Source: a virus. From it: a DNA stretch of 64,000 nucleotides. The DNA lies in IMG/VR virus record IMGVR_UViG_3300032214_001462, positions 1 through 64,000 of that record; one strand, written 5' to 3'. Every line of letters begins with the position of its first letter. The first letter of the stretch is position 1. Below are positions 5,260 to 24,020 of this stretch, in pieces. The position numbers were made by a program, and so were the translations under genes. Below the pieces are notes generated by a model. The model worked only from the letters and a program-made list of their open reading frames with translations, made no database searches and was not told where the DNA came from.

Positions 5260-5339
5260 GTTAGAAATCCTTAACACAAATGGAAACTTTTAATCAAGTT
5301 TAGTAACAGTCTTAGAATAATTTGAAATACTTGGAACTC

Positions 5340-5546: not shown

Positions 5547-5547
5547 A

Positions 5548-6648: not shown

Positions 6649-6667
6649 GGTTTTTTCTTAGCAAAGA

Positions 6668-6695
6668 TGGACAGTTTAACGTCATATCCAGGACG
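6668..6695 (-). ncRNA. Pseudoknot motif A, copy 2
   Basis: CGUC-C-UGGAUA-U-GACG-UUAAAC-UGUCCA. Confidence 0.75.
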
Positions 6696-6715
6696 ATCTA
6701 TTTAATTGTTTTATT

Positions 6716-6937
6716 TCATTCAATTTCCAACTTTGTTTTTTGTAACGAATCAAAGTAAGAATCAGATGATTCTCGCATTGCTTCAAAGATAGTGCTTTCG
6801 ATATAGCCACAACCCTTGAGGAAATAAACAAGGCGTTGGACTACATCATCAGCAACTACAGCTTTGAACTCATGCAGTACTTTGTTGTTTTCATCTTCAT
6901 AAAGAAGAGTGAATTGATCGTGAGTTGGGAGTGACAT
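6716..6937 (-). CDS. Hypothetical protein
   Basis: Common phage pattern HEFKAVV...VQRLVYFLKGCGY. Confidence 0.65.
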   Translation of the reverse strand: MSLPTHDQFTLLYEDENNKVLHEFKAVVADDVVQRLVYFLKGCGYIESTIFEAMRESSDSYFDSLQKTKLEIE

Positions 6938-7755: not shown

Positions 7756-7775
7756 GAGATCAAATGTGAAGTGTT

Positions 7776-7803
7776 AAAGCAGTTTAACGTCATGCTTAGG
7801 ACG
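7776..7803 (-). ncRNA. Pseudoknot motif A, copy 3
   Basis: CGUC-C-UAAGCA-U-GACG-UUAAAC-UGCUUU. Confidence 0.75.
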
Positions 7804-7808
7804 TTTCA

Positions 7809-9671: not shown

Positions 9672-9843
9672 TGTTGTTAATCCAAGTCAATATCTGCTGC
9701 GCACCCGCTCGATAGGGATGAGAGAAGATCTTGTTTAAAGCTACATCTGAATCTAGCGGAATCAATTCGAATTTATTAGTCTCGCTGTTTGCAGTAATGG
9801 CATGTGGTCGGCCCCACTGCCAGCAGGAAATGATGTAACTCAT
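9610..9843 (-). CDS. Hypothetical protein
   Basis: ORF track; overlaps polA start. Confidence 0.55.
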   Translation of the reverse strand: MSYIISCWQWGRPHAITANSETNKFELIPLDSDVALNKIFSHPYRAGAQQILTWINNNDEDLACKELSIQTEARFRK

Positions 9844-9905
9844 TGATCAAATAAAAGACGGATGCATATTATCCGATTTGATTTGATCGTCAAGCAGCTA
9901 CAGAT

Positions 9906-10667
9906 TTATTTTCTGTTCTTGATGTTGTATCCAACAAATTTTCCTTCCTTCTTCCGTTGAGTAATGGCTTTCATGGCATCCGACCCAGCACGCTGGGAGC
10001 CATGGACCAAGAGTGCGAAGGGCTTATCACCTAAGCAATGGCTGTCGTCGTGATCTATTTGGAGACCACGCTCTGCCGCTTCCTCTTCTGTGTAAACAAC
10101 ATATGCCACACGCTGGAACACATCAGGATACTTGGGGATCAAGTAGTCGAGTGTGCCGCCTTGTGATGCAGTGAGATAGAAGTTAGGTGGCATGATGTCC
10201 TTAAGGTTTAGCCACATGCCAAGGGACTTGGTGTAGCTGTAGAACTTTTGATCAGGCCTACCTTGAGCGACCATGATCCAAGCACGCATGTAGTTTTCAG
10301 TCCAATAGTCACCAGACTCATGGATGCGCACAAGTTTTTTAGGTGCTTGCATCAAGAGTGATAGATCGATTAGATCACGGAGAAGCATAGCTTGGCTGCC
10401 ATTCATATGAATGGTTTCACGTAGTAGATCCCAGTTATGCCAACGAGCTTCTCTTACTGTTGGCCTGGTCTCGGCCATTGCAGCAAAGCAACGGTATTCA
10501 TCTGCGACTGTGCCAGTGAACTGAGGCAAGTCACGGATTTGACCAGTGACACGATCAGCCATGGTCTTACATACACCAGCGTGCGGACATGAATAACCAG
10601 CTGGGATATTAAAGATCAAACGATTTTTGAGTTTGCCGTTACCAGTGGAAAACTTGAGGAGTTTCAT
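9906..10667 (-). CDS. GP88-like protein (Cys-rich)
   Basis: GNGKLK...FNIPAGYSCPHAGVC...CFA, VRIHESGDY, FYSYTK. Confidence 0.7.
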   Translation of the reverse strand: MKLLKFSTGNGKLKNRLIFNIPAGYSCPHAGVCKTMADRVTGQIRDLPQFTGTVADEYRCFAAMAETRPTVREARWHNWDLLRETIHMNGSQAMLLRDLIDLSLLMQAPKKLVRIHESGDYWTENYMRAWIMVAQGRPDQKFYSYTKSLGMWLNLKDIMPPNFYLTASQGGTLDYLIPKYPDVFQRVAYVVYTEEEAAERGLQIDHDDSHCLGDKPFALLVHGSQRAGSDAMKAITQRKKEGKFVGYNIKNRK

Positions 10668-10702
10668 GGTGTTGAGTTGAGTTGAATGATAAAAAAAACT
10701 GA

Positions 10703-10730
10703 TGAGTAGTTTAGGGACATGCTCAGGTCC
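10703..10730 (-). ncRNA. Pseudoknot motif A, copy 4
   Basis: GGAC-C-UGAGCA-U-GUCC-CUAAAC-UACUCA; stem 1 shows compensatory changes. Confidence 0.7.
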
Positions 10731-10762
10731 ATCTTCCCGTTCGGGAATGCTAGTGGGTCTGA

Positions 10763-11233
10763 CTACTGGGCTTCAAGCTCATCAGCAATAGCGAGCAAGC
10801 GGTTCTTAACACCAAGCAGCGCCCAGTGCTCTTCTGGCGTCTGAGCTTTAATTGGTACTGGCACCACCTGATCCGCAGCGGCGCGAAGGGCGGCGGCGGC
10901 TATCTGTCGAGCTTCGTTGAGGCAATCTTCTGGGCCATAGGCGCTGCTGTTGTTGGCGGCATCCAGCACCGCCTGCGCGGCGGGGGAGAGGGGTGCGGTC
11001 ATTGGTGGCCCCCAGCGGGTCAAGGCTTCCGCAATCGCGTTCTCAAAACCAACTTCAGATCCTTCGCCCATGTGGCGATAGAACAACTCGGTCACATCAC
11101 TGTCCCTCGGCCTCTCCCCCGTCTCGGCCAGCAGTGCGCGGGCACGTTCCAGTAAGTCATGGTGCTTCATATCCACTGCGTAGGTGTTAAAGGCAGCGTG
11201 AAGCTCAGCGCACAGTGCTCGGAAGTCAGTCAT
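10763..11233 (-). CDS. Modular hypothetical protein (GC-rich block)
   Basis: MTDFRALCAEL...LSPAAQAVLDA...LLAIADELE. Confidence 0.7.
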   Translation of the reverse strand: MTDFRALCAELHAAFNTYAVDMKHHDLLERARALLAETGERPRDSDVTELFYRHMGEGSEVGFENAIAEALTRWGPPMTAPLSPAAQAVLDAANNSSAYGPEDCLNEARQIAAAALRAAADQVVPVPIKAQTPEEHWALLGVKNRLLAIADELEAQ

Positions 11234-11753
11234 CGAGTTGCTCCAGTGCGCGGCGGATGGTGTCGGAGTTGCAAGTTCCCATGTTCTCCAATGCGTCTAA
11301 TTCACTGAGTGCACGCTCCTTCAAGCTCGGCGGCTTGGGGCGGCGGACTTCCTCCTCCCAGTTGATAACCTCATCGTCTCGGCCAATAGCGCGGGCTACC
11401 TGATCCACCAGCGAACTATCAACTTGGTTTGAAGTAGAAGTTAGCGTCATACCAACCCTGAAGTTGGGCGTCAGCAATGCCTGTAACTCCGCCTGTTGCT
11501 TTGCAGTAAGTTTCAAAGGCTTGCTGATCTGGTAGATCTTTGATGTTTGGCGTTCAGCAGCTTCCAGAGATTCAACCCGACTACACAAAGCCAAAATGTT
11601 TGCATGGGTTTCGACGATGTGCTTGTGAGCTGCATCTTCTAGCACCTTTACCCTGGCGCGGAGTTCAAGGATGCAGGCTTGAGCGTGGCCGTCCCGACGA
11701 GCCCAATGCTCCGTGTCGGCCCATTGCTCGGGCGTTGCTGTGTGGTCAGTCAT
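11226..11753 (-). CDS. Modular hypothetical protein (GC-rich block)
   Basis: RRPKPPSLKE...RRALEQLDD; ATGACTGA junction. Confidence 0.7.
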   Translation of the reverse strand: MTDHTATPEQWADTEHWARRDGHAQACILELRARVKVLEDAAHKHIVETHANILALCSRVESLEAAERQTSKIYQISKPLKLTAKQQAELQALLTPNFRVGMTLTSTSNQVDSSLVDQVARAIGRDDEVINWEEEVRRPKPPSLKERALSELDALENMGTCNSDTIRRALEQLDD

Positions 11754-11872
11754 CGAGGGCCTCCAGTGCGCGGCGGAGAAGGGTCAGATCGCATTGCAGA
11801 TCCCAACGCTTTTCCAAACCAGTTACTACTTCTAGCGCCTGCTCCTTCAAGCTCGGCGGCTTGGGGCGGCGG
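11315..11872. repeat. 32-bp exact direct repeat (11315-11346 and 11841-11872)
   Basis: gctccttcaagctcggcggcttggggcggcgg occurs twice. Confidence 0.9.
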
Positions 11873-12072
11873 GCGGCGGTAAGAAACTCTCTGGCGTTGG
11901 AGTCACTCAACTCCAAGAGTTTGCAGCAAGCCTCCAGCTCCTGATCAGATCCCCAGCGGGCGGCTTGGGTGGCGATGTAGTCGTAGTAAGGGCCGAGCTG
12001 ATTATCCGCTTCTCTGTACCACTGCTGCACCAGCTCAGGCGGCGGAGTAATCGGGTGGTTGTTGTCAGTCAT
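11746..12072 (-). CDS. Modular hypothetical protein (GC-rich block)
   Basis: ITPPPELVQQW...RRPKPPSLKE...RRALEALDD. Confidence 0.7.
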   Translation of the reverse strand: MTDNNHPITPPPELVQQWYREADNQLGPYYDYIATQAARWGSDQELEACCKLLELSDSNAREFLTAARRPKPPSLKEQALEVVTGLEKRWDLQCDLTLLRRALEALDD

Positions 12073-12175
12073 GAGGAAGAGAAGTGTGTAGAACTAATTG
12101 GTGGTTGTGTTACAGGATGAACGACATCATATACATGAAGCGTCATATACTTTCCGTATAAACCGCTACAGAATA

Positions 12176-12328
12176 ATGACGCTTACATACCGTGGTGTCA
12201 AGTACGAGCAAGAGGATCGTGCTAAGGCAGACAAGGCCTGGTGGAACTTAGCCCATCGTCCATGGCTACGTCTGACGTACCGTAACATCCGCTACAATCC
12301 TTATCTTACTGGAGGTCAAATCAAATGA
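12176..12328 (+). CDS. DUF4278-like small protein
   Basis: MTLTYRGVKY plus a second LTYRNIRY repeat. Confidence 0.65.
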   Translation: MTLTYRGVKYEQEDRAKADKAWWNLAHRPWLRLTYRNIRYNPYLTGGQIK

Positions 12329-12441
12329 ACAAAGCATTGATTGTTTACCTGGTAAACCAGAAAAAGAAAGTGGCACGCAAGGATATGGAATCCAAGCATG
12401 CCATCAAAGAGCTAGAAAAACAAACAACCGCGACCTTCTGA
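12325..12441 (+). CDS. Small basic protein (38 aa)
   Basis: GGAGG at 12311; ATGA overlap; MNKALIVYLVNQKKK... Confidence 0.55.
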   Translation: MNKALIVYLVNQKKKVARKDMESKHAIKELEKQTTATF

Positions 12442-12472
12442 TCGCCATTGTTGAACCTGATCCCCTGGCTTA

Positions 12473-13120
12473 TCAGCTGGGGGATTCTGTTTGGAAGGCA
12501 GCTTCTCCAATGATGGGGAACTGTTCGCAAAAGATTCGTTTGATTTCTCTGGCAATTTGTTGGTGTTCAAGTTGTGTTGATTCATGACAACGTAAGTCTA
12601 GGTAGTGAACCCACGACCTAATTGTACCGTTCATGAAGAGACGAGTTTGTGTCGATAGCGGCAGAATGGAGCGAGCACATTCTTTTGCTACACCATTACT
12701 AACCATCTCACGATAGAGATGCTCAGAGTTTTCATAGAGTTCACTGATTCTCCTGTAGTAATTGCTTACTAAATCAGGAGATAGATCATCAATACTGTTC
12801 TGCCTATTCTTGTGATCCTGCCTACGCAGATGTGGAATTACAGCAGAGCCAAGTTCATTGGTATCTGCATAGCGTTGACTAAACTCTTGGAATGAGAATG
12901 AACGATGGCGAATAATCTGCGCAGATATTGCGCGTGTTGTTTCAATTTCAACACAAAGATTAGCCATCTCGTAAGGGCTCCAGTGTTTGTGCTTAATGAG
13001 ATAACGCAACAACCGTGGAGCAGTGTCCATGTTGTCTTGGTTTTTTGGAGCTGATACACGAGCCATGCGTGTGATCATCTCTTCTGCATTGGGCGTTGCC
13101 CAAACCAACTGGACACTCAT
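12473..13120 (-). CDS. thyX: FAD-dependent thymidylate synthase
   Basis: HWSPYE and RHRSFSFQEFSQRY ThyX motif. Confidence 0.95.
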   Translation of the reverse strand: MSVQLVWATPNAEEMITRMARVSAPKNQDNMDTAPRLLRYLIKHKHWSPYEMANLCVEIETTRAISAQIIRHRSFSFQEFSQRYADTNELGSAVIPHLRRQDHKNRQNSIDDLSPDLVSNYYRRISELYENSEHLYREMVSNGVAKECARSILPLSTQTRLFMNGTIRSWVHYLDLRCHESTQLEHQQIAREIKRIFCEQFPIIGEAAFQTESPS

Positions 13121-13121
13121 C

Positions 13122-13421
13122 TCATTCACCAGGGACAATAAATTCTTTCATCAGACGCTCAAGCTCTGATGCAGGACAGATACGCATCGTAGCGTGTTCT
13201 GTTGGTGAAGACAGATGATCCCACTGGATCACTAAGAACTTTTGCTTACGGCCAAGGCTGTTTGGTTTTTCAACAATGTCTAGTACATTGCCGTATCGCT
13301 GGGTGCGGTATTGCTGAATACGTTCTTTGACTTCATTACGGATAGCAAAGATCCCATGAGTCTTGGGACGTTCAGCAACACGATCACCAACGGTGTAAGT
13401 GAATTGACGTTTAGTTGGCAT
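13122..13421 (-). CDS. Hypothetical protein (possibly SH3-like)
   Basis: YTVGDRVAE...FLVIQWD. Confidence 0.6.
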   Translation of the reverse strand: MPTKRQFTYTVGDRVAERPKTHGIFAIRNEVKERIQQYRTQRYGNVLDIVEKPNSLGRKQKFLVIQWDHLSSPTEHATMRICPASELERLMKEFIVPGE

Positions 13422-13770
13422 AGTGATTGCAGTCGAATGAATCAGCTGTGTGGTACTCAGGGAAATCAAATGAGCAGTTGTCATTGATGTTATGAGAACA
13501 AGTCAAGCACTTGATCTCAGGTAGTCTGTCTTCTATTTGATCAACAACACTAGTGCCCATTAGCTTAGATAGTTGTTGATGCAAATGAAGTAGATGTTCG
13601 TACTGTGCATAGGCTTCGGATGAGATTTCATATGTTGTGAAGCGATGTTTACAGTCTTCACATTCTTTACGGCGCCGCTGTCCATGTTGTGCTTTCTTGG
13701 ATTCAAGCACACGAACAGCGGACTTACCGCATTGAGGACAATCAGGGAGCTTGAGTTTCTGGAACCCCAT
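13411..13770 (-). CDS. NrdR-like Zn-ribbon protein without ATP-cone
   Basis: CPQCG...RVLES...RRRKECEDCKHRFTTYE. Confidence 0.7.
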   Translation of the reverse strand: MGFQKLKLPDCPQCGKSAVRVLESKKAQHGQRRRKECEDCKHRFTTYEISSEAYAQYEHLLHLHQQLSKLMGTSVVDQIEDRLPEIKCLTCSHNINDNCSFDFPEYHTADSFDCNHYAN

Positions 13771-14065
13771 CTTCTTTAGATAAGTTCAATGAGTTGAGTA
13801 GTTCAAGACAATTAACTGAACCCATGATTTTAAATGAATCAATAATTAATTCTTCCTTGAAATCAGGAAGTTCATAGTATGCAAATAAGATGGCTTCTGC
13901 TTTATCGAAGTCATCATAAGAGCCTGTTAGTTTTTCAATAACAGAGCCAGGCATGTTGTCAACAAGACAGGTAATAATTGATTGTCTGACTTGTTCCCAA
14001 CAATGATCAGGAACTAGATAAATTGTTTTAGCAACAAGATCAAGGTCAACGTAGTCTTGTGTCAT
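13742..14065 (-). CDS. Hypothetical protein
   Basis: ORF track. Confidence 0.6.
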   Translation of the reverse strand: MTQDYVDLDLVAKTIYLVPDHCWEQVRQSIITCLVDNMPGSVIEKLTGSYDDFDKAEAILFAYYELPDFKEELIIDSFKIMGSVNCLELLNSLNLSKEDGVPETQAP

Positions 14066-14112
14066 ATAGAAAGACCCCCGCCAATGCAGGGGCCGAACAT
14101 TCCGGTAGTACC

Positions 14113-14475
14113 TTAGACAGCTGTAGCTTCTGTGTCAATGAGCTTGTCATAAAGACCAGCATCCTTGAGCCGCTCAAGCATGCCACACATCATGGTTGCG
14201 TGGGCTTGAGTGGTCTCCATGAAGTGACGTGCACGTTCAGCTGAGATCACATGAACGTTGCCGTTAGGTTCGACATACTTCCATGAGCCATCAGGCTGAG
14301 GATCACCCTGGAGCGCAAGCTTCTCAGAGTTACGGACGTAACGTAGCTCAAGGTTATGATGATCCTTAAGGCCATCACCATCCGTCCATGTAGCACCGAT
14401 GTTGTAGCGCTTCTCATCATCAGAGTATGCATGGAACTCAGGGATGAGAGATTTGAAAGCAGAAAGGAATTGCAT
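14113..14475 (-). CDS. Hypothetical protein
   Basis: ORF track; followed by a terminator-like hairpin at about 14068-14095. Confidence 0.65.
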   Translation of the reverse strand: MQFLSAFKSLIPEFHAYSDDEKRYNIGATWTDGDGLKDHHNLELRYVRNSEKLALQGDPQPDGSWKYVEPNGNVHVISAERARHFMETTQAHATMMCGMLERLKDAGLYDKLIDTEATAV

Positions 14476-14505
14476 TGTTTTGAATTGAGTGTGGGTTGGT
14501 AGCCG

Positions 14506-14535
14506 ACTGGGACTTACACCTTATGGATGCCCAGT
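14506..14535 (-). ncRNA. Bulged-stem motif B, copy 1
   Basis: ACUGGG-CAUCCAUAAGGUG-UAAGU-CCCAGU. Confidence 0.65.
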
Positions 14536-14586
14536 TATGTGTGTCACATATTTATTGCTTGGCTCATAGTTAAGTAAAGAAAAGAC

Positions 14587-14660
14587 TGCCTGCTGACGGA
14601 TTCGAACCGACACTGAACGAGGCTTAAACTCGTCGCCTCTACCAGTTGGGCTAAGCAGGC
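14587..14660 (-). tRNA. trnL: tRNA-Leu(UAA), short variable loop, CCA not encoded
   Basis: Acceptor stem GCCTGCT/AGCAGGC+A; anticodon arm ACGAG-TTTAAGC-CTCGT; T-loop TTCGAAT. Confidence 0.9.
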
Positions 14661-14860
14661 TCGCTTGGACTTACGTCAATTGCATCTGACTGCCAAGTGT
14701 GATCTTGAGGCAGGACTTCCATTCCGTAAGTCCAGCTATCGTAGTCTTCTTCGTTGCGGGGATCGTCTTCAATCAAGATGTACTGTGGTGAATTGTCATG
14801 AATGTAATCGCCGAGATTAGCTAGTGCCATGGCAAGCAACTGCTCATCGGTATGGTCCAT
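14651..14860 (-). CDS. Small acidic protein; 3' end overlaps motif B2 and the tRNA 5' end
   Basis: ORF track; D/E-rich. Confidence 0.55.
   Translation of the reverse strand: MDHTDEQLLAMALANLGDYIHDNSPQYILIEDDPRNEEDYDSWTYGMEVLPQDHTWQSDAIDVSPSEPA
14664..14697 (-). ncRNA. Bulged-stem motif B, copy 2 (3 nt upstream of the tRNA)
   Basis: CUUGG-CAGUCA...UGACG-UAAGU-CCAAG. Confidence 0.6.
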
Positions 14861-14909
14861 GGTTAAAGAGGCATCCCATTTACGAGGATAGGATGCCCCT
14901 GCTGTGGCT

Positions 14910-16619
14910 TCAGCAATTAGATGCTAGCTGCTTTTCACGGGAGTGCAAGGCCAGCTTGAATGCAGCGGAGTACTGCTCTTGCTGGCAGTCATCCAATCGC
15001 TGGTTGCCAACACCAGCAATTTGTTTGACGTTCATCACACCCATGGATACATCCAGTTGGATGGTGAAGGTTGGTTTGCTATCAATCATGCAGAGCACAA
15101 TGAAGTGCTTGCGTTTCTTGATGTTCTCAGCATACTGAGATGCAGAGCCAACACAGTTGCGAACAGCTTGGCCCCATTGGGCTAGCTGATGCGTATCAAT
15201 GGGTTGGAGGAATGTCCATTCTTGTTCACCCATGTTGACCTTGACAGGCATAGGGAACAAGTCCTGGTACAGAGACTCCTTCTTGTTTGTGATCTTCCAC
15301 GCCTCTGCTTGTACATAGTCATGGAAGTCAGGCATACGCCAGCGCTTGGGTGGTTCAAGCGTCTTACCTTCTTCTAGAATGCGCATGATCATTGAGAATG
15401 TATCATTTAATTCATAGAAACTTTTAAGATGATAATCATAATCAGACATTGAACCAATACGTGCGCCAATGTCAAGTTCGTTATATTTACGCAAGATATT
15501 AAAGAATGAAGCAACAGACATATGTTGGCGTAGCCATTCAATTAATTGAGAATCAGTACGTAAATAGTCAAGACGAATTGAACGTAGCTCATCGTAGTAA
15601 GTACGGTAATGATCGAGTGGGCATTCAGGCCAAATCTTATTTACAAAGTGAATTGAATTAGTGATTTGCTCGAATGCTTTATAGCCATACTTAATTGTTT
15701 TACGTGCTGTATTATCTGGATTGTTATATTCTGCAGTGCAGCGATCAAGTTCTATTTGTAATTGTTTCTTGATATATGGAGTAGTAATGATATGACTGAT
15801 TGCTGTAAGTGTTACATAAGTTGAAGACAAAGTACCATGCTCTTTGCGGAATGATTCCGCAGTATCAAGCATGTTATCTACTGTCAACTTAAAGTTAGCT
15901 TTGTCAGAGATATGGCGAGTCAGTGACGCTGGTATGTCTAGCGCATCAAGTACGTTGTTGCACTTGATGCGATCAAAGATACCACGTGAATCAGACCATG
16001 ATGGTATGGTTGACATCAGCTCTTGCTCAAATTGAGTAATTGCTGCTGCCATATCACGTGACTTTTGGTAGTAATTACCAACGCTTGATTTACGCCAATG
16101 ACGAGAATCATTGCCATTAACAATGTCTTGCTTGGTAATTAATTGAGAGTAAGTAAAGATCTGTACGCCCCGACCAGTGGTGTGCTCAGTGCATTGATCT
16201 TTACTATTCCAGATTTGATGCGGCACCATCTTTGCTGCTGCCGATGTGTTCTTGAATCCATAGGCATAGCCATAGATATAGTCTTCACCTCGTTGAGGGA
16301 GCCATGCTGCGTACCAGCATTGTTCGTAGTGATAGAGAATAGCGATAGGTACAGTGCGTGCTTGCGGAGTTGCCACATCCACAAGCTTGGTAAACAATTG
16401 AAAACGGCCTGGTGCTAGCTCGCTATTGATGCGGTCTATCGCATCTTGCTGCAAGCCACTGCGTACGACATCTTCTGGGATCAGATGTGGGATATTACCC
16501 AGTGGGTACTTAGCTTTCTTAGGAGCCTTAGCAGGTTCCTGTTCTCTGACCAAAGCCTTGAGCTTTGGGTCATAGGCAAGCAGTTCTTGTTGGAGATTGG
16601 AGGGTAGAGCAAAATGCAT
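14910..16619 (-). CDS. PcfJ-like domain protein
   Basis: C-terminal FHD...LAQWGQAVRNCVGS...FTIQL...QIAGVGN. Confidence 0.75.
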   Translation of the reverse strand: MHFALPSNLQQELLAYDPKLKALVREQEPAKAPKKAKYPLGNIPHLIPEDVVRSGLQQDAIDRINSELAPGRFQLFTKLVDVATPQARTVPIAILYHYEQCWYAAWLPQRGEDYIYGYAYGFKNTSAAAKMVPHQIWNSKDQCTEHTTGRGVQIFTYSQLITKQDIVNGNDSRHWRKSSVGNYYQKSRDMAAAITQFEQELMSTIPSWSDSRGIFDRIKCNNVLDALDIPASLTRHISDKANFKLTVDNMLDTAESFRKEHGTLSSTYVTLTAISHIITTPYIKKQLQIELDRCTAEYNNPDNTARKTIKYGYKAFEQITNSIHFVNKIWPECPLDHYRTYYDELRSIRLDYLRTDSQLIEWLRQHMSVASFFNILRKYNELDIGARIGSMSDYDYHLKSFYELNDTFSMIMRILEEGKTLEPPKRWRMPDFHDYVQAEAWKITNKKESLYQDLFPMPVKVNMGEQEWTFLQPIDTHQLAQWGQAVRNCVGSASQYAENIKKRKHFIVLCMIDSKPTFTIQLDVSMGVMNVKQIAGVGNQRLDDCQQEQYSAAFKLALHSREKQLASNC

Positions 16620-16648
16620 GAGTTGAGTTCGTAGTTGGTTCGTAGTAT

Positions 16649-16676
16649 TGAGCAGTTTAGCGTCATGCTCAGGACG
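16649..16676 (-). ncRNA. Pseudoknot motif A, copy 5
   Basis: CGUC-C-UGAGCA-U-GACG-CUAAAC-UGCUCA. Confidence 0.75.
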
Positions 16677-16686
16677 TATGACTTAG

Positions 16687-16929: not shown

Positions 16930-17114
16930 TAGTCAGGTTCCACAAATGAAACTGTGTTTGATATGAAACACTTGTAACGAGTCCACGCCCTTGCAGTTGT
17001 GTGCTCGCCCATGAAACGATTGTTATCAAGGCAATTTTGATGTGCACGTTCCGATGCACAACGTGCAATGTTGATGCGTTCGAACAAGCTGAGGTTTGTG
17101 TCTCTGTTGTACAT
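16929..17114 (-). CDS. Hypothetical protein
   Basis: CTCAACTCAACTC leader; TAATG junction. Confidence 0.6.
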   Translation of the reverse strand: MYNRDTNLSLFERINIARCASERAHQNCLDNNRFMGEHTTARAWTRYKCFISNTVSFVEPD

Positions 17115-17138
17115 GAGTTGAGTTGAGTAATTGGATTT

Positions 17139-17172
17139 GATCTAGGACTTACACCTTACGGATGCCTAGATC
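17139..17172 (-). ncRNA. Bulged-stem motif B, copy 3
   Basis: GAUCUAGG-CAUCCGUAAGGUG-UAAGU-CCUAGAUC. Confidence 0.7.
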
Positions 17173-17173
17173 T

Positions 17174-17371
17174 TTAGATTAATTTAATGTTTGGAATGCT
17201 CAATCCTGTGCCAGGAACACTGAGTGATCCTTTGACACCATTTGGATTGGCATTGAGAGTTAGTTGGAATGGACCAAGCTTAATCGCTTTGGTCATTGAT
17301 TTAATTCCGTGTTCAGTTATGTTGACACCATGGATGGTGCGATCAAAACTGATGAGTGATTTCTTAGTCAT
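17174..17371 (-). CDS. DUF4236-like small protein
   Basis: KAIKLGPFQLTLN...SVPGTGLS. Confidence 0.5.
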   Translation of the reverse strand: MTKKSLISFDRTIHGVNITEHGIKSMTKAIKLGPFQLTLNANPNGVKGSLSVPGTGLSIPNIKLI

Positions 17372-17577
17372 TTGAGGTCTTCAGGTAGGAGTGCATTGGC
17401 ATCATCGTCATCCATATTTGTCATGACGAATTTCTGTCCATCGGGGGATATAAAGCCACCGATGAAACCGATGCCATGTTTATCTGCTGATTCTTTCATC
17501 TTTGCTACAAGCTGCATAGCTTGAAGTCTTTGCATATCCAGAGAGTCTGGTATGCGAGGAGTGTTTGGTGTTGGCAT
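17368..17577 (-). CDS. Hypothetical protein
   Basis: ORF track; CTCAAC leader. Confidence 0.6.
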   Translation of the reverse strand: MPTPNTPRIPDSLDMQRLQAMQLVAKMKESADKHGIGFIGGFISPDGQKFVMTNMDDDDANALLPEDLK

Positions 17578-17739
17578 TGATGTTGAGTTGATTAACTGAT
17601 GAAGTCTATCAGGGTTGTAAAGGGTTGATTGATGTATTAAAAGATATTACTTATAGATAGTACTTATATAAACCATAGATCCCCCCTGGTACTCCACTGG
17701 GGGAGTGTGAGGGGGGGAATACATGTGTACTACCTGATG

Positions 17740-18210
17740 TTACCGATGCATCTCCTGGTGTTCTTTCCATGCAGCTGCATGCATTTCTGCTGCAGTGATG
17801 GGTGGTTCACCAGGTTCGTTAGGTGTTGGATCGTAGTCGATCTCATCTTCCAACATGCCGATGACCTCATCGACAATGTTACGCATGTGCGGATCAAGAT
17901 GCTCGTCCATTTGATGACGCTTATCTTCGCGAGCACAAATGGCTTTAAGTGCATCAACTACTAGCTTTAGTTGATGGTACTCATTCTTGGTCCAATCAAT
18001 TGCTGGATACTTCTTGGTTTGTTCCATGGTTGAGTTAAGGTTGAGGTTGGGTTGTAGATACCAATCGTGTTTGTTTACCATTGCTTCACAGTGGTAACAC
18101 TGAAGTGCTGTCCACTGGAAGTGATAAACAGTTGTCCGATTGTTGCACTGTGGGCAGTAAATAGATTTACCACCTTGCGATGCACGTGTTGAGTCTGTTA
18201 CTTGTGTCAT
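17740..18210 (-). CDS. Zn-ribbon hypothetical protein (possible second start near 18027)
   Basis: CPQC and CYHC pairs; internal CTCAACC-ATG leader. Confidence 0.6.
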   Translation of the reverse strand: MTQVTDSTRASQGGKSIYCPQCNNRTTVYHFQWTALQCYHCEAMVNKHDWYLQPNLNLNSTMEQTKKYPAIDWTKNEYHQLKLVVDALKAICAREDKRHQMDEHLDPHMRNIVDEVIGMLEDEIDYDPTPNEPGEPPITAAEMHAAAWKEHQEMHR

Positions 18211-18228
18211 TGACAGATCACAGTAAAT

Positions 18229-18269
18229 CCTGGGACTTACACACCGTACTTACGTAGGTGAAGCCCAGG
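18229..18269 (-). ncRNA. Bulged-stem motif B, copy 4
   Basis: CCUGGG-CUUCACC...GGUGUG-UAAGU-CCCAGG. Confidence 0.65.
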
Positions 18270-18338
18270 TGTGGACTGATGTATTGGCATGTATTCGCTA
18301 TTTGCGAATAGCAAATATATAACGGAAGTGTTATGGAG

Positions 18339-18593
18339 TCATAGCCCGGTCTTAGGTTCGAGCATGATCCAGCCAGTGTAGTTAGCACTGGTTCGATCAA
18401 CGCGTAGTAATCCGTATTGTTCTAGTTTGATCAATGCGTTGAGATATTGATCAAGCCTTGATATTTGGGTTGAACACCGTGGCACATAGCACGGAGTGTT
18501 CTTATGCTTCTTCTTGTGATTCAAGAAGTAGAGATATAGATTTCGCTGATTGATTGTCAGGCCTGGTGCTAGGCCCAGTACTTCTGTTGTCAT
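18339..18593 (-). CDS. Hypothetical protein (possibly winged-helix)
   Basis: LTINQRNLYLYF...YLNALIKLEQYGLLRV. Confidence 0.6.
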   Translation of the reverse strand: MTTEVLGLAPGLTINQRNLYLYFLNHKKKHKNTPCYVPRCSTQISRLDQYLNALIKLEQYGLLRVDRTSANYTGWIMLEPKTGL

Positions 18594-18961
18594 CAGCAGT
18601 AGTGTGGTTTGATTTCGGGATAGACTTTAGCGTATCCGTTGTCAAAGTTGACTTCGTAGTTCGAGTACGTCGTTGAGAGGCCAAGGCTTGGCTGCTCTTG
18701 GATCTCGTACTCGTCGAAGTATTGGATGAAGGTTTGGACTGCTTGCTTCTTGGAGAAGATGCAGTGGGTAAGGACTGGGTATCCTGCTTGGTAGTACCAA
18801 CCACCTTCCTCTGGACCACCGTAGTTGAGTGTGGTTTCGTGGATGGTGATTGTCGTTGGGGTTTCGTATTCCCATTCAAGGTGTGTGTTGTAGCGCTGGA
18901 GGGCGTAACGCACTTTGTAAGTTCTGGGGTAGAACTTTTGGAGCTCACTGAGATAAGACAT
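18593..18961 (-). CDS. Conserved phage protein (YGGPEEGGWYY)
   Basis: YGGPEEGGWYY motif and C-terminal P..KPHYC. Confidence 0.7.
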   Translation of the reverse strand: MSYLSELQKFYPRTYKVRYALQRYNTHLEWEYETPTTITIHETTLNYGGPEEGGWYYQAGYPVLTHCIFSKKQAVQTFIQYFDEYEIQEQPSLGLSTTYSNYEVNFDNGYAKVYPEIKPHYC

Positions 18962-19036
18962 TGAATTGAATCGATGAGTGTTGTGATGAGAATGGAGATG
19001 AGGGTAATGATGACAATGACGATGTCATCTTCGTGA

Positions 19037-19165
19037 TTACGATTCGTCATCATAGCCCTCCCATTCTTCTTCAGTTGTTTCACGCATAGCTTGCTCTTGT
19101 TGATATGCAATGTCAGCCATTGCATCAAGCAAGTCTGCGTTGAAGTTGTTATCGAGGTTAGTCAT
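19037..19165 (-). CDS. Highly acidic 42-aa peptide
   Basis: Manual translation MTNLDNNFNADLLDAMADIAYQQEQAMRETTEEEWEGYDDES; CTCAACTCAA leader. Confidence 0.6.
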   Translation of the reverse strand: MTNLDNNFNADLLDAMADIAYQQEQAMRETTEEEWEGYDDES

Positions 19166-19197
19166 GGTTTGAGTTGAGGTAAGTGGATAAGTGGACA

Positions 19198-19425
19198 CTA
19201 GCCGTGGGGTACGAAGTCAGAGTCGCTGAGCAATTGGTGGACTGACAGGCAGTCCTCTGCAATCTCATCTCTGGTGCAGCCGTCCCAATCATCAGATTGA
19301 TCTTCGATCACTTCGCAGCCAATGTCTTCGAGTTGATCGACGAATTGATTCCAGGTACGTGCTTGGCCCCAGACGTGGGCATAACGCCCAGTGAGGTCAG
19401 CGACTAGTGCGATGTGGAGTCCCAT
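19198..19425 (-). CDS. Acidic hypothetical protein
   Basis: ORF track; start at MGLHIAL. Confidence 0.55.
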   Translation of the reverse strand: MGLHIALVADLTGRYAHVWGQARTWNQFVDQLEDIGCEVIEDQSDDWDGCTRDEIAEDCLSVHQLLSDSDFVPHG

Positions 19426-19600
19426 TGTTCTGTGGTGTGATGTTGGTGATGTCAACGCCTAACAGTGCAGGCACTGTGAATGAGGCGATGATGATGGCAA
19501 AGGTTGCGACCAGTACATTCCCTAGTCGATTCTCATGAGTCTCACCATAAGAATCAAGGGTGATGTACTTGCCTTTGCCCATGGAGTAAATAGTTCGCAT
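19397..19600 (-). CDS. Small membrane protein
   Basis: One hydrophobic helix; start at MRTIYS. Confidence 0.55.
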   Translation of the reverse strand: MRTIYSMGKGKYITLDSYGETHENRLGNVLVATFAIIIASFTVPALLGVDITNITPQNNGTPHRTSR

Positions 19601-19617
19601 GGTGTTGTGTGCAGTTG

Positions 19618-19691
19618 CTGCAGGAGGTGAGTCCTGCAGTAAACCCACCACCGATACGGATCCGTATCAATGGAAGGGTTAAGAGCAGGAG
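19618..19691 (-). ncRNA. Motif C, copy 1
   Basis: UCCUGC-UCUUA-[hairpin]-UUUACU-GCAGGA-CUCACC-UCCUGC. Confidence 0.7.
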
Positions 19692-19695
19692 TCTG

Positions 19696-20079
19696 TCAGA
19701 AAGGAATTTCTTCCAGTGTAGGTTCTACCTGGAGTGTTGGTTCAACCGTTGCCTTGGGCTTAGGTGCTGAACCAATGGTTGCCCTTACGTTTGTAAGAGC
19801 GATCTCTGGGTAGCGAAGAGGAAGTAGTTGTTCATCCTTGGTGTAGTGCGTACGAATACTTGCGATCCGTACGTCCCACTGGCTAAGGATGAGTTGCTGT
19901 CCGACAACGAATGTACCGTTGCGGTAAGCAGTTAACAATCCGTTGGAATTGTTAAATTTAATCCGACAAGACTTGTCGTATGCATCATTGACTGCAACTG
20001 TGATTGCAAGGAATTCACGTCCTTCATAGGTCGCGACTTCCATGTAAGTAACGTTGCCAATGATGGTGTTAGAGAACAT
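19696..20079 (-). CDS. Second SSB-like OB-fold protein
   Basis: TIIGNV...ITVAVND; acidic C-terminal EEIPF. Confidence 0.5.
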   Translation of the reverse strand: MFSNTIIGNVTYMEVATYEGREFLAITVAVNDAYDKSCRIKFNNSNGLLTAYRNGTFVVGQQLILSQWDVRIASIRTHYTKDEQLLPLRYPEIALTNVRATIGSAPKPKATVEPTLQVEPTLEEIPF

Positions 20080-20101
20080 GGTTGGTATGAAGTTGAGTTG
20101 A

Positions 20102-20177
20102 TGTACAGGATGTTGAGTCCTGCAGTAAACCTACCGTCGTAGTACATACGTACTGACGGCAGGGCTTAGAGCAGGGA
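20102..20177 (-). ncRNA. Motif C, copy 2
   Basis: CCCUGC-UCUAA-[hairpin]-UUUACU-GCAGGA-CUCAACA-UCCUGU. Confidence 0.7.
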
Positions 20178-20381
20178 TCAGTTTAGATACTTTGCATTAA
20201 TGCAGTAGTAGCTATCACCAAGGAAGCTCTTGGTGTAGATCAGGTTATGTCCTGGTCTGTTGTTGCATGTCTTCTTGTAGTGTTGGTTGAGTAGCTTCTG
20301 GCCTCCAGCAGAAAGGAATAAGCCACAACCAACGCCGAGAACAAGAGCAACACAGGAATCGATAAAGTGATTGTTTGTCAT
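20178..20381 (-). CDS. Small membrane-anchored protein
   Basis: N-terminal hydrophobic helix; FLGDSYYC. Confidence 0.55.
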   Translation of the reverse strand: MTNNHFIDSCVALVLGVGCGLFLSAGGQKLLNQHYKKTCNNRPGHNLIYTKSFLGDSYYCINAKYLN

Positions 20382-20407
20382 GGTGTTATGTAGTGTGTTA
20401 AGAACGC

Positions 20408-20680
20408 TCACATCATTTGCATGATGCGTTCTTGTTCCATGTCGATGCTGTACTCGTAGTACTCATGCATCTCCATGAGCATGTCTTTCATTGAGCTTGG
20501 TAATCCACCGCCGAGAGTACGGACATCACGCTCCAACCATTCCTGGTATGTAGCATTGGTATCGGCGTCGAATGTATTCCATAGCTTCTCGAAGTGAAGC
20601 ATGGTTGATTCACCGCCGTACCATGTGATGCGATACTGATGTTCGCCGGATGGTTTGTAGACCAGTGCAGGTGTTGTCAC
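20408..20680 (-). CDS. Hypothetical protein (GTG start)
   Basis: CTCAACTCAAC leader before GTG at 20680. Confidence 0.6.
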   Translation of the reverse strand: MTTPALVYKPSGEHQYRITWYGGESTMLHFEKLWNTFDADTNATYQEWLERDVRTLGGGLPSSMKDMLMEMHEYYEYSIDMEQERIMQMM

Positions 20681-20705
20681 TGTTGAGTTGAGGTAGTGTT
20701 GATGA

Positions 20706-20754
20706 CAGGATGTTGAGTCCTGCAGTAAAGGCCCGTAGGCCCTTAGTGCAGAAG
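20706..20754 (-). ncRNA. Motif C, copy 3
   Basis: UUCUGC-ACUAA-GGGCC-UACG-GGCC-UUUACU-GCAGGA-CUCAACA-UCCUGU. Confidence 0.7.
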
Positions 20755-20928
20755 TCAAAGTTCAGTCTTGGGAGTAATGACAAATGCCATATCGTTAGGC
20801 ATCAGCAGGGCTGCTGCACGTATACGGTATTCATTTAGCTTGGTGCTGACATACTCCTTAGATTTGTCACTCTCCAGCATTGCTGCTGTTGAGATAAGTG
20901 CATTGGCTAGTCCTTTGCGGATACCCAT
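20755..20928 (-). CDS. Small hypothetical protein
   Basis: Start at MGIRKG, downstream of motif D1. Confidence 0.55.
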   Translation of the reverse strand: MGIRKGLANALISTAAMLESDKSKEYVSTKLNEYRIRAAALLMPNDMAFVITPKTEL

Positions 20929-20943
20929 ATTGTGTAGTGTAGA

Positions 20944-21011
20944 TGCCACGGGATTGTGGCAATAACTGGGCAGGGGTTTGCACCCTGCCACCCGCTTTAA
21001 CGGATCAGCTA
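20944..21011 (-). ncRNA. Motif D (tRNA-like three-way junction plus hairpin), copy 1
   Basis: UAGCUG-AU-CCGU UAAA GCGG-GU-GGCAGGG UGCAAAC CCCUGCC-CAGUUA-U-UGCCAC...GUGGCA. Confidence 0.7.
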
Positions 21012-21208
21012 GTTTGGAAGGCTGACCTGAACATTGAGTCATACACCTTATGTGTAACCTCGCGGTTCGGATCGTTAATCGCAACAAAGCGATCAACCAT
21101 TTCAGCTAGGCAGACTTCATAGTCAACCATTCTCTGACAACAATCTTCAATTGCTGCCTCACGAAGTGAGATCAGCACTTCAAGAGTGTGAGCAAGAGCT
21201 TGGTCCAC
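21005..21208 (-). CDS. Small hypothetical protein (GTG start)
   Basis: AGGAG Shine-Dalgarno before GTG. Confidence 0.55.
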   Translation of the reverse strand: MDQALAHTLEVLISLREAAIEDCCQRMVDYEVCLAEMVDRFVAINDPNREVTHKVYDSMFRSAFQTS

Positions 21209-21230
21209 AGGAATCTCCTGTTGTGTGCGG

Positions 21231-21303
21231 TGCCTATCTCCGCTGGAGGCAATGACCAGAGCCAGGCATTGCACCTGGCTTGGGAGCTATAACTCACCTG
21301 GCC
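21231..21303 (-). ncRNA. Motif D, copy 2
   Basis: GGCCAG-GU-GAGU UAUA GCUC-CCA-AGCCAGG UGCAAUG CCUGGCU-CUGGUC-AU-UGCCU...AGGCA. Confidence 0.7.
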
Positions 21304-21473
21304 TGAAGCTGACGTACGAACTTACGTGCGTTGTTAACTGACATCGTGGTGCTGCAGTCGTAACCCTTCTGGCTCTTACGAACCAGCTTGGTGATACGAG
21401 CTAAGCCCACTTGCTTGTTAACCACGAAGTGATACGTTGCTTGCTTGGTTGAGATTGTGAAGAAGATGTCCAT
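21294..21473 (-). CDS. Small basic protein (59 aa), first gene of the leftward arm
   Basis: Manual translation MDIFFTISTKQATYHFVVNKQ...RQLQAR. Confidence 0.55.
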   Translation of the reverse strand: MDIFFTISTKQATYHFVVNKQVGLARITKLVRKSQKGYDCSTTMSVNNARKFVRQLQAR

Positions 21474-21496
21474 TGATTTGAGATGGATTGAAGGTT

Positions 21497-21521
21497 GCTG
21501 CGTTTAACGTCCAGCTCGACG
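21497..21521 (-). ncRNA. Pseudoknot motif A, variant copy 6
   Basis: CGUC-GAGCUG-GACG-UUAAAC-GCAGC; loop GCUG pairs with CAGC. Confidence 0.55.
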
Positions 21522-21940
21522 TAGCTATCAAAGTAGATAGATAAGAATCAAGTGCTGAACTGCGTTCTCACCCTTGGTCCTCCCTTGAAAGCTACTGTCT
21601 TATATGGACGAGAGCGGGGCGGGGCGCAGATTATACCCATGTGCGATACGGATTCGTATCAAAATCAAGGTAAATGTATCAAATTATACAGTTCTAAGGG
21701 TGTTTAGTGAGCGCAGCGAGCGCTCCCTTCGTGAACGAAGTGAACTCTACATGCTTCTAAGCATTTATACTCACTTCCTCACAGGTAACACCCTATCCTT
21801 TCTTTTTTTCTATACGTAATCCACTACGCGTAGGGTATATAAGAAGCGTCAGCAAATTTTTTATCCTTTTTTGACCTCTATAGGAGCCGATTTTTGTAAA
21901 GAATGTAAGGTTATACTTGCTTTTGCCCAAGAAAACACAC

Positions 21941-21966
21941 AAAAAAGCCGGGTTTTTACCCCGGCG
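21941..21966 (-). terminator. Terminator hairpin
   Basis: aaaaa-GCCGGG-tttttac-CCCGGC, read as a hairpin plus T-run on the minus strand. Confidence 0.6.
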
Positions 21967-21994
21967 TTACCAAAATTTATTTTTAATTTTTTAT

Positions 21995-22204
21995 TCAGAG
22001 GTTTTGTTTACCCCATTTTGCTGCAGCTGAAGAAGCCTTTGCGTAAGCTTCGGGATCTGGACGCTCTGAAGAGAGTTTATTCCGTGCCCCAATAATAAAT
22101 TGCTGGACTTCTGTATCGCTAGTCCCTTCTTTTTTTAATTTATCCGCTGCATCAGCAATTGCATTGAGTGCAATCGCTTTTTCAATGCGATTTTTTGGGT
22201 TCAT
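21995..22204 (-). CDS. Hypothetical protein
   Basis: ORF track; followed by terminator. Confidence 0.6.
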   Translation of the reverse strand: MNPKNRIEKAIALNAIADAADKLKKEGTSDTEVQQFIIGARNKLSSERPDPEAYAKASSAAAKWGKQNL

Positions 22205-22322
22205 AAGCCCAATTCCCGTTTTCTTGACTTATTTTCTTGTCAATAGTCTAGCGTATTCGCATTTTTCTTAAATTCTTCGAAGTAAAATACACATAACAAA
22301 GATACAAAAAAATAAATTAACC

Positions 22323-24020
22323 ATGGCGCTAGCACCTGCTGATTTTTACGCCTACAGCCAGGCCACTGGTACGCCATACCCAGAAGATCCGGAAGAACGT
22401 GCAGCTCTAGCCCCACAGGTCGCTGCTTTCCGCCGTAGTCAGCTTCAGCCTGCCCAGGAGCAGTCCAACCTTCCAGGCATTCTTGGCGCCGCAGCCCTTG
22501 GCTTAGGTGCCTTAGCCGGTGGTGCAGTACTTGCTAGACGTTTCGCCGGAAAGAAACCTACTTCTACTGTTGGGCTGACAGCTGAAGGAGCACAGAACGT
22601 ACAAAATATTGGAACAATGGCACGGCAAGCAGCAAATGAAGCTGCTGTAATCCAAGCTCGCGCAGAACGTCCACAAGGAATTCAACAAGTTGACCTGTCT
22701 GCTGTCAATAAACTTTTAAATGACAAATCTTTGTTAGCTGCCGTTGAAGCACAAGAAGCTGTTGAGTCTTTAACGCCGCAACAACTATCTGAATTCCGTG
22801 GTGCTGAGTCACGTGCACGTAATGAATATCGTGGTGCAATCACCGCAATAGGTGATGAGATCATTGCACAAGAAAGAGCAGCTGCAAAGATTCCTGTTGT
22901 CAACCAAACGTTAGGTGCATTGGAATCTGGTGAAGACCAGGTGACTGGTCGTATCTTGCGTGGTGTACAGAGAAATGAAGATCTTGATTCTTCCGTTGTT
23001 AACGCAGTTGCTAAACAAACTGGTAATGCAGAAGTTGCAGCATCTTTAACACCTGATGGTGTACCTAAAGATCAGCTGGAACTTAATCAACCCTACACAG
23101 CTCAAGAACTTGTTGAGGTAGCAAAGCAAGAAATGCTTTCGCGTCGCCAGTCTTTAGAGCAAGCTGGGATGCGTCCAGGAACCGTAAGGTTTGAAAGGGC
23201 ACTCGCTCAGCCTTTCCGCACATCACAAAACGCTGTTGTCACTGGTACAGCACCCGTTGGTCTTGCCTTACCGGCAGGAGCAATTCGTCAGACCGTTGAA
23301 TCAGTTGGTGCCGGTGAACCGTTAATTGAAAAGGCTGTTCTTAACATTGGCCCACAAGCAGTTTTAACATCTACAGCGGCAGGCACCGCAATCCGTGGTG
23401 CATCACCCAGCTATTACGAGGCGCTTCCCAAACAAGAGCTTCGTCAGCTTTACGGAGCGGCTGATCCCTTGGTGCCAGGTGCACCTGATGAATTAGTGCC
23501 AGATCTTCCTGCTTCCTTGCGCATCCGCGGAGGTGTCGCACCAGATGTGGAGCCAGAACTTCTTTCCAAACAAGAAATTCAATATAGTGTTTTAGATAGG
23601 CCCCAAGTTGCTGGCCCTGCGGGTGGCTCTGCAGGCATCGGCATTTACGGTATCGAACCAGGCTTCGTACCCGGAGCAGTTACAAAATCAACTGGCGAGT
23701 ACAGTGAAGCGTCTTCTCGTAAGCCAAGCTATGTTCCAGGTTGGCTGCAACGCAAAGCAGGACGTACCGGTTTTGAGAATCTAAATACTGCACAGCTTGC
23801 GACCGCTGCCGAGAACGCAAAGGCACCTAAGATTCAAGCTGCGTTAGAGAACGAACTAGGCAAAAGAAAAGCCGCTCAAGAGAGTATAGAATTATCAGAA
23901 GAAATGCGTCGAACTAGAATGGAAAGACCAGATGCACAAAATTTCTTGGCAGAAAAAATGCAGCAATTAGGCATTTCTGCCATTGGTGAGTATTCACCCT
24001 TACCTCGCCGCTATCGTTGA
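22323..24020 (+). CDS. Hypothetical virion-associated protein
   Basis: 565-aa Ala-rich ORF with one hydrophobic helix. Confidence 0.7.
   Translation: MALAPADFYAYSQATGTPYPEDPEERAALAPQVAAFRRSQLQPAQEQSNLPGILGAAALGLGALAGGAVLARRFAGKKPTSTVGLTAEGAQNVQNIGTMARQAANEAAVIQARAERPQGIQQVDLSAVNKLLNDKSLLAAVEAQEAVESLTPQQLSEFRGAESRARNEYRGAITAIGDEIIAQERAAAKIPVVNQTLGALESGEDQVTGRILRGVQRNEDLDSSVVNAVAKQTGNAEVAASLTPDGVPKDQLELNQPYTAQELVEVAKQEMLSRRQSLEQAGMRPGTVRFERALAQPFRTSQNAVVTGTAPVGLALPAGAIRQTVESVGAGEPLIEKAVLNIGPQAVLTSTAAGTAIRGASPSYYEALPKQELRQLYGAADPLVPGAPDELVPDLPASLRIRGGVAPDVEPELLSKQEIQYSVLDRPQVAGPAGGSAGIGIYGIEPGFVPGAVTKSTGEYSEASSRKPSYVPGWLQRKAGRTGFENLNTAQLATAAENAKAPKIQAALENELGKRKAAQESIELSEEMRRTRMERPDAQNFLAEKMQQLGISAIGEYSPLPRRYR

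Follow-up and report, generated by a model that had tools for sequence, protein, structure and literature searches.

Motif C, a repeated RNA element with two competing helices behind stop codons in the early region of a probable freshwater cyanophage

The early region and the three Motif C copies

The window, that is, the whole stretch of 64,000 nucleotides analysed here, comes from the start of an IMG/VR phage record of 80,662 bp with a terminal repeat of 123 bp. Genes from position 1 to about 22,300, including those for DNA polymerase A and SSB, lie on the minus strand, and the structural genes follow on the plus strand from 22,323 onward. The 878-aa ORF of the genome is a primase-helicase, and a search for a phage RNA polymerase (PF00940) found none in the genome, the control search likewise giving no match. 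Megablast of window positions 17000-23000 against the phage collection returned zero matches. The nearest cultured relative, Synechococcus phage S-EIV1 (KJ410740.1), was found by tblastn with the portal-like protein of the window, to which its own portal-like protein is 73% identical, and it shares the gene order. Because S-EIV1 is the closest cultured relative and has this gene order in common, the phage very probably infects a freshwater cyanobacterium. The S-EIV1 lineage occurs widely in fresh water, and to our knowledge almost nothing has been mapped of how genes are regulated in cyanophages that are neither T4-like nor T7-like.

Three copies of an RNA element here called Motif C lie some 0.9-2 kb downstream of two TATAAT boxes (~21690 and ~21634), interspersed with the first small genes of the leftward early operon. 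All three are on the minus strand, in the sense orientation of the genes. They carry the 16-mer TTTACTGCAGGACTCA at 19628-19643, 20114-20129 and 20714-20729 (minus strand), which has no other occurrence in the 80.7-kb genome. Pfam and PHROGs assign no function to the flanking small proteins. Each copy proceeds from a stop codon through a long hairpin (P1 and P2), an alternative hairpin (P3) and a leader to a start codon, and P3 reuses the 3' arm of P1 (arm2) and hence competes with the long hairpin. On the sense strand the order is stop codon, arm1 (YCUGC), the variable P2, a near-invariant UUUACUGCAGGACUCA(A/C)C(A)UCCUG, leader and start codon, the leader after P3 being C/A-rich, 18-30 nt long and without a Shine-Dalgarno sequence. 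The parts are listed below with the bit scores of covariance model R1, which was used to collect Motif C copies.

20705-20758, minus strand: copy 3, whole element from the stop codon to the end of arm3 (R1 77.6 bits, E 1.5e-22; folds)
20755-20757, minus strand: copy 3, UGA stop of the upstream ORF (20755-21096), pairing with UCA at 20714-20716 (P1b)
20747-20753, minus strand: copy 3, arm1 UUCUGCA, the 5' strand of P1a, pairing with 20718-20724
20726-20745, minus strand: copy 3, P2 hairpin UAAGGGCC-UACG-GGCCUUUA (fold, covariation)
20718-20724, minus strand: copy 3, arm2 UGCAGGA, common to P1a and P3 (folds)
20705-20710, minus strand: copy 3, arm3 UCCUGU, the 3' strand of P3, whose loop is 20711-20717
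20678-20680, minus strand: copy 3, GUG start of the downstream gene (ATG there in relatives), 24 nt after P3
20104-20180, minus strand: copy 2, whole element (R1 63.6 bits; folds)
20178-20180, minus strand: copy 2, stop codon
20171-20175, minus strand: copy 2, arm1
20126-20168, minus strand: copy 2, P2
20118-20124, minus strand: copy 2, arm2
20111-20117, minus strand: copy 2, P3 loop
20104-20110, minus strand: copy 2, arm3
20077-20079, minus strand: copy 2, ATG of the downstream gene (19696-20079)
19618-19698, minus strand: copy 1, whole element (R1 57.3 bits; folds)
19696-19698, minus strand: copy 1, stop codon
19692-19693, minus strand: copy 1, GA of P1b
19685-19690, minus strand: copy 1, arm1
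19642-19680, minus strand: copy 1, P2
19632-19639, minus strand: copy 1, arm2
19626-19631, minus strand: copy 1, P3 loop
19618-19625, minus strand: copy 1, arm3
19598-19600, minus strand: copy 1, ATG of the downstream gene

Much of this layout had been anticipated by a sequence-only reading of the same DNA. All three copies directly follow a UGA stop (19696-19698, 20178-20180 and 20755-20757, minus strand), as it had claimed, and all three have the outer stem it described as YCUGC/GCAGGA, read here as YCUGC/GCAGG, around an inner hairpin that differs in length and sequence between copies. The alternative pairing of GCAGGA with a downstream UCCUG(Y), across a loop of CUCAACA or CUCACC, was likewise found in all three. 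The "conserved asymmetric internal loop" (WCUWA opposite UUUACU) of that reading has to be given up: it is mostly helix, UAAG pairing with UUUA and covarying to UGGAG/UUCC in relatives, and the unpaired remainder between P1 and P2 is a 1x1 C.C mismatch or a symmetric 2x2 to 4x4 loop. P1 runs on past a second conserved mismatch into the stop codon, where UGA pairs with UCA of the P3 loop to give helix P1b. Predicted folding energies of the long hairpins are -23, -34 and -40 kcal/mol; compared with shuffles, their z-scores lie between -5.4 and -6.0. The P2 apex of copy 1 (19655-19670) is a palindrome of the type GATACGAATCCGTATC (repeat D17, 81% over 31 nt), also present in several relatives.

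Relatives and covariation of the competing helices

A search with the 16-mer matched 33 viral contigs, and about 25 of them had the whole architecture. In this genome model R1 found the three window copies and no others; it also found one copy in S-EIV1 (KJ410740.1, 42654-42715, minus strand) and two to four copies in each of 23 related viral contigs, always clustered within ~1.5 kb; after duplicates and reverse-strand echoes had been dropped, 43 distinct sequences were left. A second model, R2, gave reverse-strand matches, and its alignment A3 was left out. R1 scored 77.6 bits on the sense strand versus 19.9 bits on the reverse strand, and the structure is tied to the sense strand because G.U pairs are frequent. 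A whole-genome scan for the three-arm architecture was unspecific (111 hits versus 42-63 in shuffles) and was dropped.

At the Rfam gathering threshold the window gave zero matches, and at E values up to 10 the segment 19550-20800 gave chance-level microRNA and snoRNA matches only. Motif C was absent from 185,579 bacterial and archaeal genomes, and no description of such an element was found in Rfam or in a full-text literature search. Its recurrence with covariation in 24 related phage genomes is, judged by these alignments, far beyond chance, and Motif C is a real RNA family, previously undescribed.

P2 varies among the relatives. At L042:2290-2400 (plus strand) P3 and the leader are normal, P2 is branched and much longer, and arm1 is displaced (CUUGC and seven extra nucleotides), a copy that illustrates the extent of P2 drift with P3 kept. 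A second recurrent P2 apex in long variants is the palindrome AGTAC-N4-GTACT (L059:1501-1581, L056:1501-1579 and L057:1501-1581). The apex is thus exchangeable, orthologous junctions having either a short tetraloop P2 or a long palindromic P2.

Both helices covary. For P1 and P2 together, 89.3% of cells were paired across the 43 sequences, with changes on both sides in 11 of 14 pairs; this level was reached by 0 of 500 shuffles, and slid controls were 32-57% paired. For P3, an anchored perfect hairpin of at least 6 bp (6-9 bp) occurred in 43/43, with 13 distinct stems, compared with 3.5% in shuffled tails, and the stem began at base 1 or 2 of arm2 in all 43. Compensatory changes were seen at four of six P3 positions, in 13 cells versus 3.0 in shuffles (0/2000). 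The anchored count was used in place of alignments A4 and A5 (MAFFT and covariance model), in which copies with shorter loops were out of register and P3 pairing was undercounted at 86%.

Some substitutions cleanly change all three arms together. In the order arm1/arm2/arm3, CCUGC/GCAGGA/UCCUGC is replaced by GUUUGC/GCAGAC/GUCUGC, and GACUACA/UGUAGUC/GGCUAC is a further variant; at one orthologous junction CUCUGCA/UGCAGGG/CCCUGCA is swapped for AUCUGCA/UGCAGGU/ACCUGCA. Arm1 and arm3 differ from one another where both still pair with arm2 (G.U versus G-C, or A-U versus G.U). Differences confined to places where pairing with arm2 survives indicate that pairing, and not repeat identity or homogenisation, is what selection maintains. 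A mobile element with arm1 and arm3 as its target-site duplication was rejected on similar grounds, as the arms differ exactly where wobble pairing permits. Two mutually exclusive folds had been proposed as conserved, a proposal that would fall if only one fold were populated and homologs lacked the downstream UCCUG; that arm is indeed conserved and covaries, and the three-way compensatory changes extend to both helices. The comparative data thus strongly support the two exclusive folds and show P1 and P3 to be under selection.

The constancy of the sequence itself raises the question of a binding partner. A 25-nt core is identical in the three window copies and most relatives, although the flanking genes differ, and it is nearly identical at many unrelated junctions, beyond what structure alone would need. 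Such constancy may point to a partner that recognises the sequence, or to gene conversion among the copies. One fold might be stabilised by a protein of the phage or the host (a translational repressor, for example, or an antiterminator-like factor or nuclease) that reads the near-invariant core UUUACUGCAGGACUCAACAUCCUG or the boxA-like UGCUCUUAAC; the conserved unpaired C residues would fit, as would YUGCWCUWA followed by a hairpin, which we take to be a loose resemblance to boxA and boxB of nut sites. In divergent copies from the same genomes, however, the arms, the P2 base and the loop of P3 differ and just the scheme of pairing is preserved, and different arm types stand side by side in one genome (for example, in the five copies of L057), which argues against a single protein specificity. 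The loop and length of P2 are free to vary, which does not suit a determinant of boxB type; the small proteins encoded nearby showed no RNA-binding domain; and three to five copies per ~1 kb are unlike the layout of nut or put sites. A protein-read switch, the second option of the sequence-only reading, is weakened by the free variation of sequence and is improbable.

Transcription offers another explanation. The element could be a leaky terminator (P2 and UUUA) or a terminator-promoter unit like the promoter-early stem-loop (PeSL), conserved mainly via recombination of early gene modules. PeSLs of T4-type phages are short repeated stem-loops bordering small early genes, and enterobacterial REP elements are short repeated stem-loops just after stop codons; both are possible substrates for recombination or mRNA stabilisation. 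Motif C likewise lies between small, variable early ORFs, its P2 apices are swapped at orthologous junctions (for example, long in window copy 1 versus short in L062:1501-1556), the identity between copies suggests gene conversion, and P2 is GC-rich and followed by UUUA or UUUU. The U-run is just 3-4 nt, however, short of the five or so expected after the GC-rich hairpin of an intrinsic terminator; it is itself paired, and divergent copies (UUCCCACC, CCCCUCAAC) have lost it. None of the copies is called as a promoter or terminator by the consensus scans, which do call the terminator at 21965-21947 in the same region; TATAAT boxes are present there at ~21690 and ~21634. Nothing is conserved at -10 distance past the core, no copy has the host-type -35/-10 early promoter that follows the stem-loop in a PeSL, and variation of P2 length by 25 nt rules out a fixed -35/-10 geometry. 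No phage RNA polymerase was found either, and the three-way covariation would be left unexplained. Motif C further lacks the BIME organisation and high copy number of REP elements, and two competing covarying helices belong to neither family. A transcription cassette, for which each defining feature is lacking, is accordingly very improbable.

The stop codon and a possible ribosome-driven exchange

Read outward, P1 follows one pattern almost throughout the 43 sequences: a helix of 6-7 bp, a mismatch that is usually C.C, and three further pairs. These last pairs are P1b, whose 5' strand is normally the UGA stop codon itself and whose 3' strand is UCA of the P3 loop; at L053:1023-1082 UCA lies on the 5' side and UGA in the loop, a compensatory swap. 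The conservation of the P3 loop is explained by this pairing of its UCA with the stop codon. The gap between stop codon and arm1 is 0-7 nt, and exactly 2 nt in 31/43. The upstream frames are all genuine, with 67-178 codons, and belong to different genes at different copies. P2 starts ~10 nt past the stop codon. The 3' edge of the ribosome footprint lies ~9 nt past the A-site codon, and from these established data P2 would begin at about the leading edge of a ribosome with the stop codon in its A site. On the other side, P3 ends 18-30 nt before the start codon in 42/43, and stop-to-start spacing in the window copies is 74-98 nt. Readthrough, a SECIS function and frameshifting were rejected: the stop codon can also be UAA, a slippery site is missing, and in most short forms an in-frame UAA follows three codons later.

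Two states can be compared on this basis. In state A, the long hairpin, the basal P1 would consist of P1b (3 bp), the C.C mismatch and P1a (6-7 bp), stacked on P2; in state B, P2 would be kept and arm2 would pair with the downstream arm3 to form P3. When the stop codon is counted in, the predicted advantage of state A has a median of 3.5 kcal/mol (range -1.1 to +10.3) and is 7.6, 5.4 and 0.1 kcal/mol for the window copies; without P1b its mean is 1.3 kcal/mol. P3 is worth a predicted -6.5 to -12.4 kcal/mol. During transcription arm3 is the last part to be made, so state A is also the first to form. The folding model thus shows state A as the default on naked RNA. Since state A is both favoured and formed first, P3 should appear only with arm1 occupied or removed, and since P3 is the most strictly conserved helix despite the dominance of state A, a condition that occupies or removes arm1 must occur in vivo. 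It might be thought that arm3 hides the start site in state A; this was rejected, the predicted accessibility of the downstream start region being 0.615 in state A versus 0.614 in state B.

It is proposed here that a terminating ribosome drives the exchange of P1 for P3, with a probability of roughly 0.45 on the comparative and spacing data. The ribosome is favoured as the agent because it is the simplest one that would occupy exactly arm1 and the stop codon. The 5' strand of P1 comprises the stop codon and the next 8-9 nt, so a ribosome decoding that stop codon would hold the strand in its mRNA channel, probably leaving P2 intact at its leading edge. Freed arm2 would then be captured by arm3, presumably repaying 6.5-12 kcal/mol of the cost of opening P1. 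Once the ribosome departs, P1 could displace P3 again, and the module would toggle with ribosome traffic on the upstream gene. A stop codon 6-7 nt upstream of arm1, as in seven of the 43 distinct sequences, window copy 1 included, means that a terminating ribosome would open P1 only partly.

The most likely purpose would be a junction that is always structured, so protected and insulated, whether translated or not. Such structure would not block termination, and it would give the downstream gene, which has no Shine-Dalgarno sequence, a set and structured 5' boundary 18-30 nt before its start. Several outputs may be envisaged: by repaying the opening of P1, P3 could allow a protective hairpin near the stop codon while avoiding stalled termination; the exchange could shorten the single-stranded leader from ~45 nt to ~24 nt; it could bring the downstream start near the terminating ribosome; or it could gate nucleases. 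The suggestion of the sequence-only reading that the switch is translation-coupled stands in so far as the stop codon lies inside P1 or 0-7 nt from it and P2 would meet the leading edge; as regards the downstream gene it fares less well, since equal start accessibility in both states (see above) does not support classical coupling by RNA unfolding.

A broader claim is more doubtful, namely that Motif C represents a new class of ribosome-actuated RNA device, in which strand exchange at almost no net cost would signal upstream translation to a downstream cistron without Shine-Dalgarno, or buffer that cistron against it. Its effects might run through the length of a single-stranded standby leader, through nuclease gating, or through approach of the downstream cistron to the terminating ribosome across two compact hairpins, as a bacterial analogue of ribosome shunting.

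The condition that removes arm1 could also be cleavage. The sequence-only reading had listed an RNase III-type processing site as between T7 early genes, for which state A would be the double-stranded substrate. If the 3' strand were cut at the C.C mismatch that separates P2 from P1a, the upstream mRNA would end in P2, a 3' stabiliser, and the downstream mRNA would begin with arm2, so that P3 would form a 5'-terminal stabiliser ~24 nt before the start. This would account for selection on P3 despite the dominance of state A on intact RNA, and P3, the most strictly conserved helix, does begin 1-2 nt past P2, its steady 18-30 nt distance to the start resembling a 5' hairpin with leader. The T7 sites (R0.3-R1.3) are repeated, conserved, irregular hairpins of ~20 bp after stops between early cistrons of a lytic phage, and Motif C is likewise repeated between consecutive small early genes; the hairpin would stay on the upstream message in both. 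The short form with its tetraloop (3, mismatch 1, 7, mismatch 1 and P2 of 8) comes to ~20 bp-equivalents or ~two helical turns, the long forms being longer, and the conserved pyrimidine mismatches beside P1a could direct a single-strand cut, although mismatches on both sides of P1a could equally be a nuclease or a protein determinant.

Where the T7 sites have an asymmetric internal loop with the scissile bond, however, Motif C is base-paired, with 1x1 C.C or small symmetric mismatches. A cut ~11 bp from the tetraloop would fall inside arm2 and shorten P3, and cleavage of the 5' strand would detach the stop codon. Neither the pairing of that codon nor the continued covariation of arm1 would be explained. 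Motif C, which is known from sequence, also differs from the T7 sites in its third arm with a competing hairpin, its stop codon in a helix and its cyanobacterial host. On balance RNase III processing, the main rival of the ribosome-driven exchange, is rather unlikely.

Known systems and the surrounding early region

The logic of Motif C resembles that of ribosome-sensing and intercistronic elements, and it has the defining features of none of them. As in the trp leader and ermC attenuators, consecutive segments pair 1:2 or 2:3, here arm1 with arm2 or arm2 with arm3, both pairings being mutually exclusive and covarying, and in the attenuators the choice is set by the position of a ribosome in the upstream frame. 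The upstream frames of Motif C, in contrast, are ordinary genes of 67-178 codons rather than short leader peptides in which codons have a regulatory role. A fourth segment is missing, and P3, with no U-run after it, is no terminator; nor does it sequester the start codon or a Shine-Dalgarno sequence.

Translational coupling by RNA unfolding is known for the MS2 coat and lysis genes and for genes VII-IX of f1 (PMC12548453). There too the ribosome that ends the upstream gene melts a junction helix, as the proposed exchange would require. The 74-98 nt spacing of the window copies is far beyond that of typical coupled pairs, however, and the helix of Motif C excludes the downstream initiation region, its strand being handed to a dedicated alternative partner.

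Motif C is a compact natural element of three-strand exchange in which each conformation is backed by unusually clean comparative data, and its proposed trigger, a ribosome positioned at a given stop codon, is defined to the nucleotide. Should the ribosome-driven switch be true, it would provide a tractable system for the remodelling of downstream mRNA by terminating ribosomes, bear on the coordination and insulation of cyanobacterial cistrons without Shine-Dalgarno, and supply candidate parts for synthetic operons. The proposal is directly testable, since S-EIV1, which infects Synechococcus PCCC-A2c, is in culture and has one copy.

Other early genes of the window have comparable upstream regions. 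Many follow C/A-rich repeats of the ACUCAAC type without Shine-Dalgarno (for example, at 5050-5077, 10664-10691, 17113-17137 and 20088-20112, plus-strand coordinates), and at least one has AGGAG, at the GUG near 21206. A repeat family, D1/D8 (CGUCCUGAGCAUGACG-YUAAACUG, "Motif A"), occurs on the minus strand within 3505-16683 and at 21497-21522, and its members end ~20-36 nt upstream of the starts at 6648, 7755, 10667, 16619 and 21473, in the same geometry as P3 to start. A structured element with a ~24-nt C/A-rich leader seems to be a general design of the early genes of this phage, with Motif C as its two-state form linked to a stop codon.

Further features lie close to the start of the operon. 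At 21625-21695 (minus strand) the two TATAAT boxes occupy ~21690-21685 and 21634-21629, and the palindrome GATACGAATCCGTATC lies between TTGATA and the second box; palindromes of this type could be an operator or a protein-bound hairpin used in two contexts. At 21947-21965 (minus strand) an intrinsic terminator of canonical form, GCCGGG-loop-CCCGGC and then six U, follows a small AT-rich ORF (21995-22204) whose composition is unlike that of the rest of the early region. The early region also has a tRNA gene at 14587-14660 (minus strand), and a group I intron (Rfam RF00028, 95.5 bits) is found at 38203-38441 (plus strand) in the structural region.
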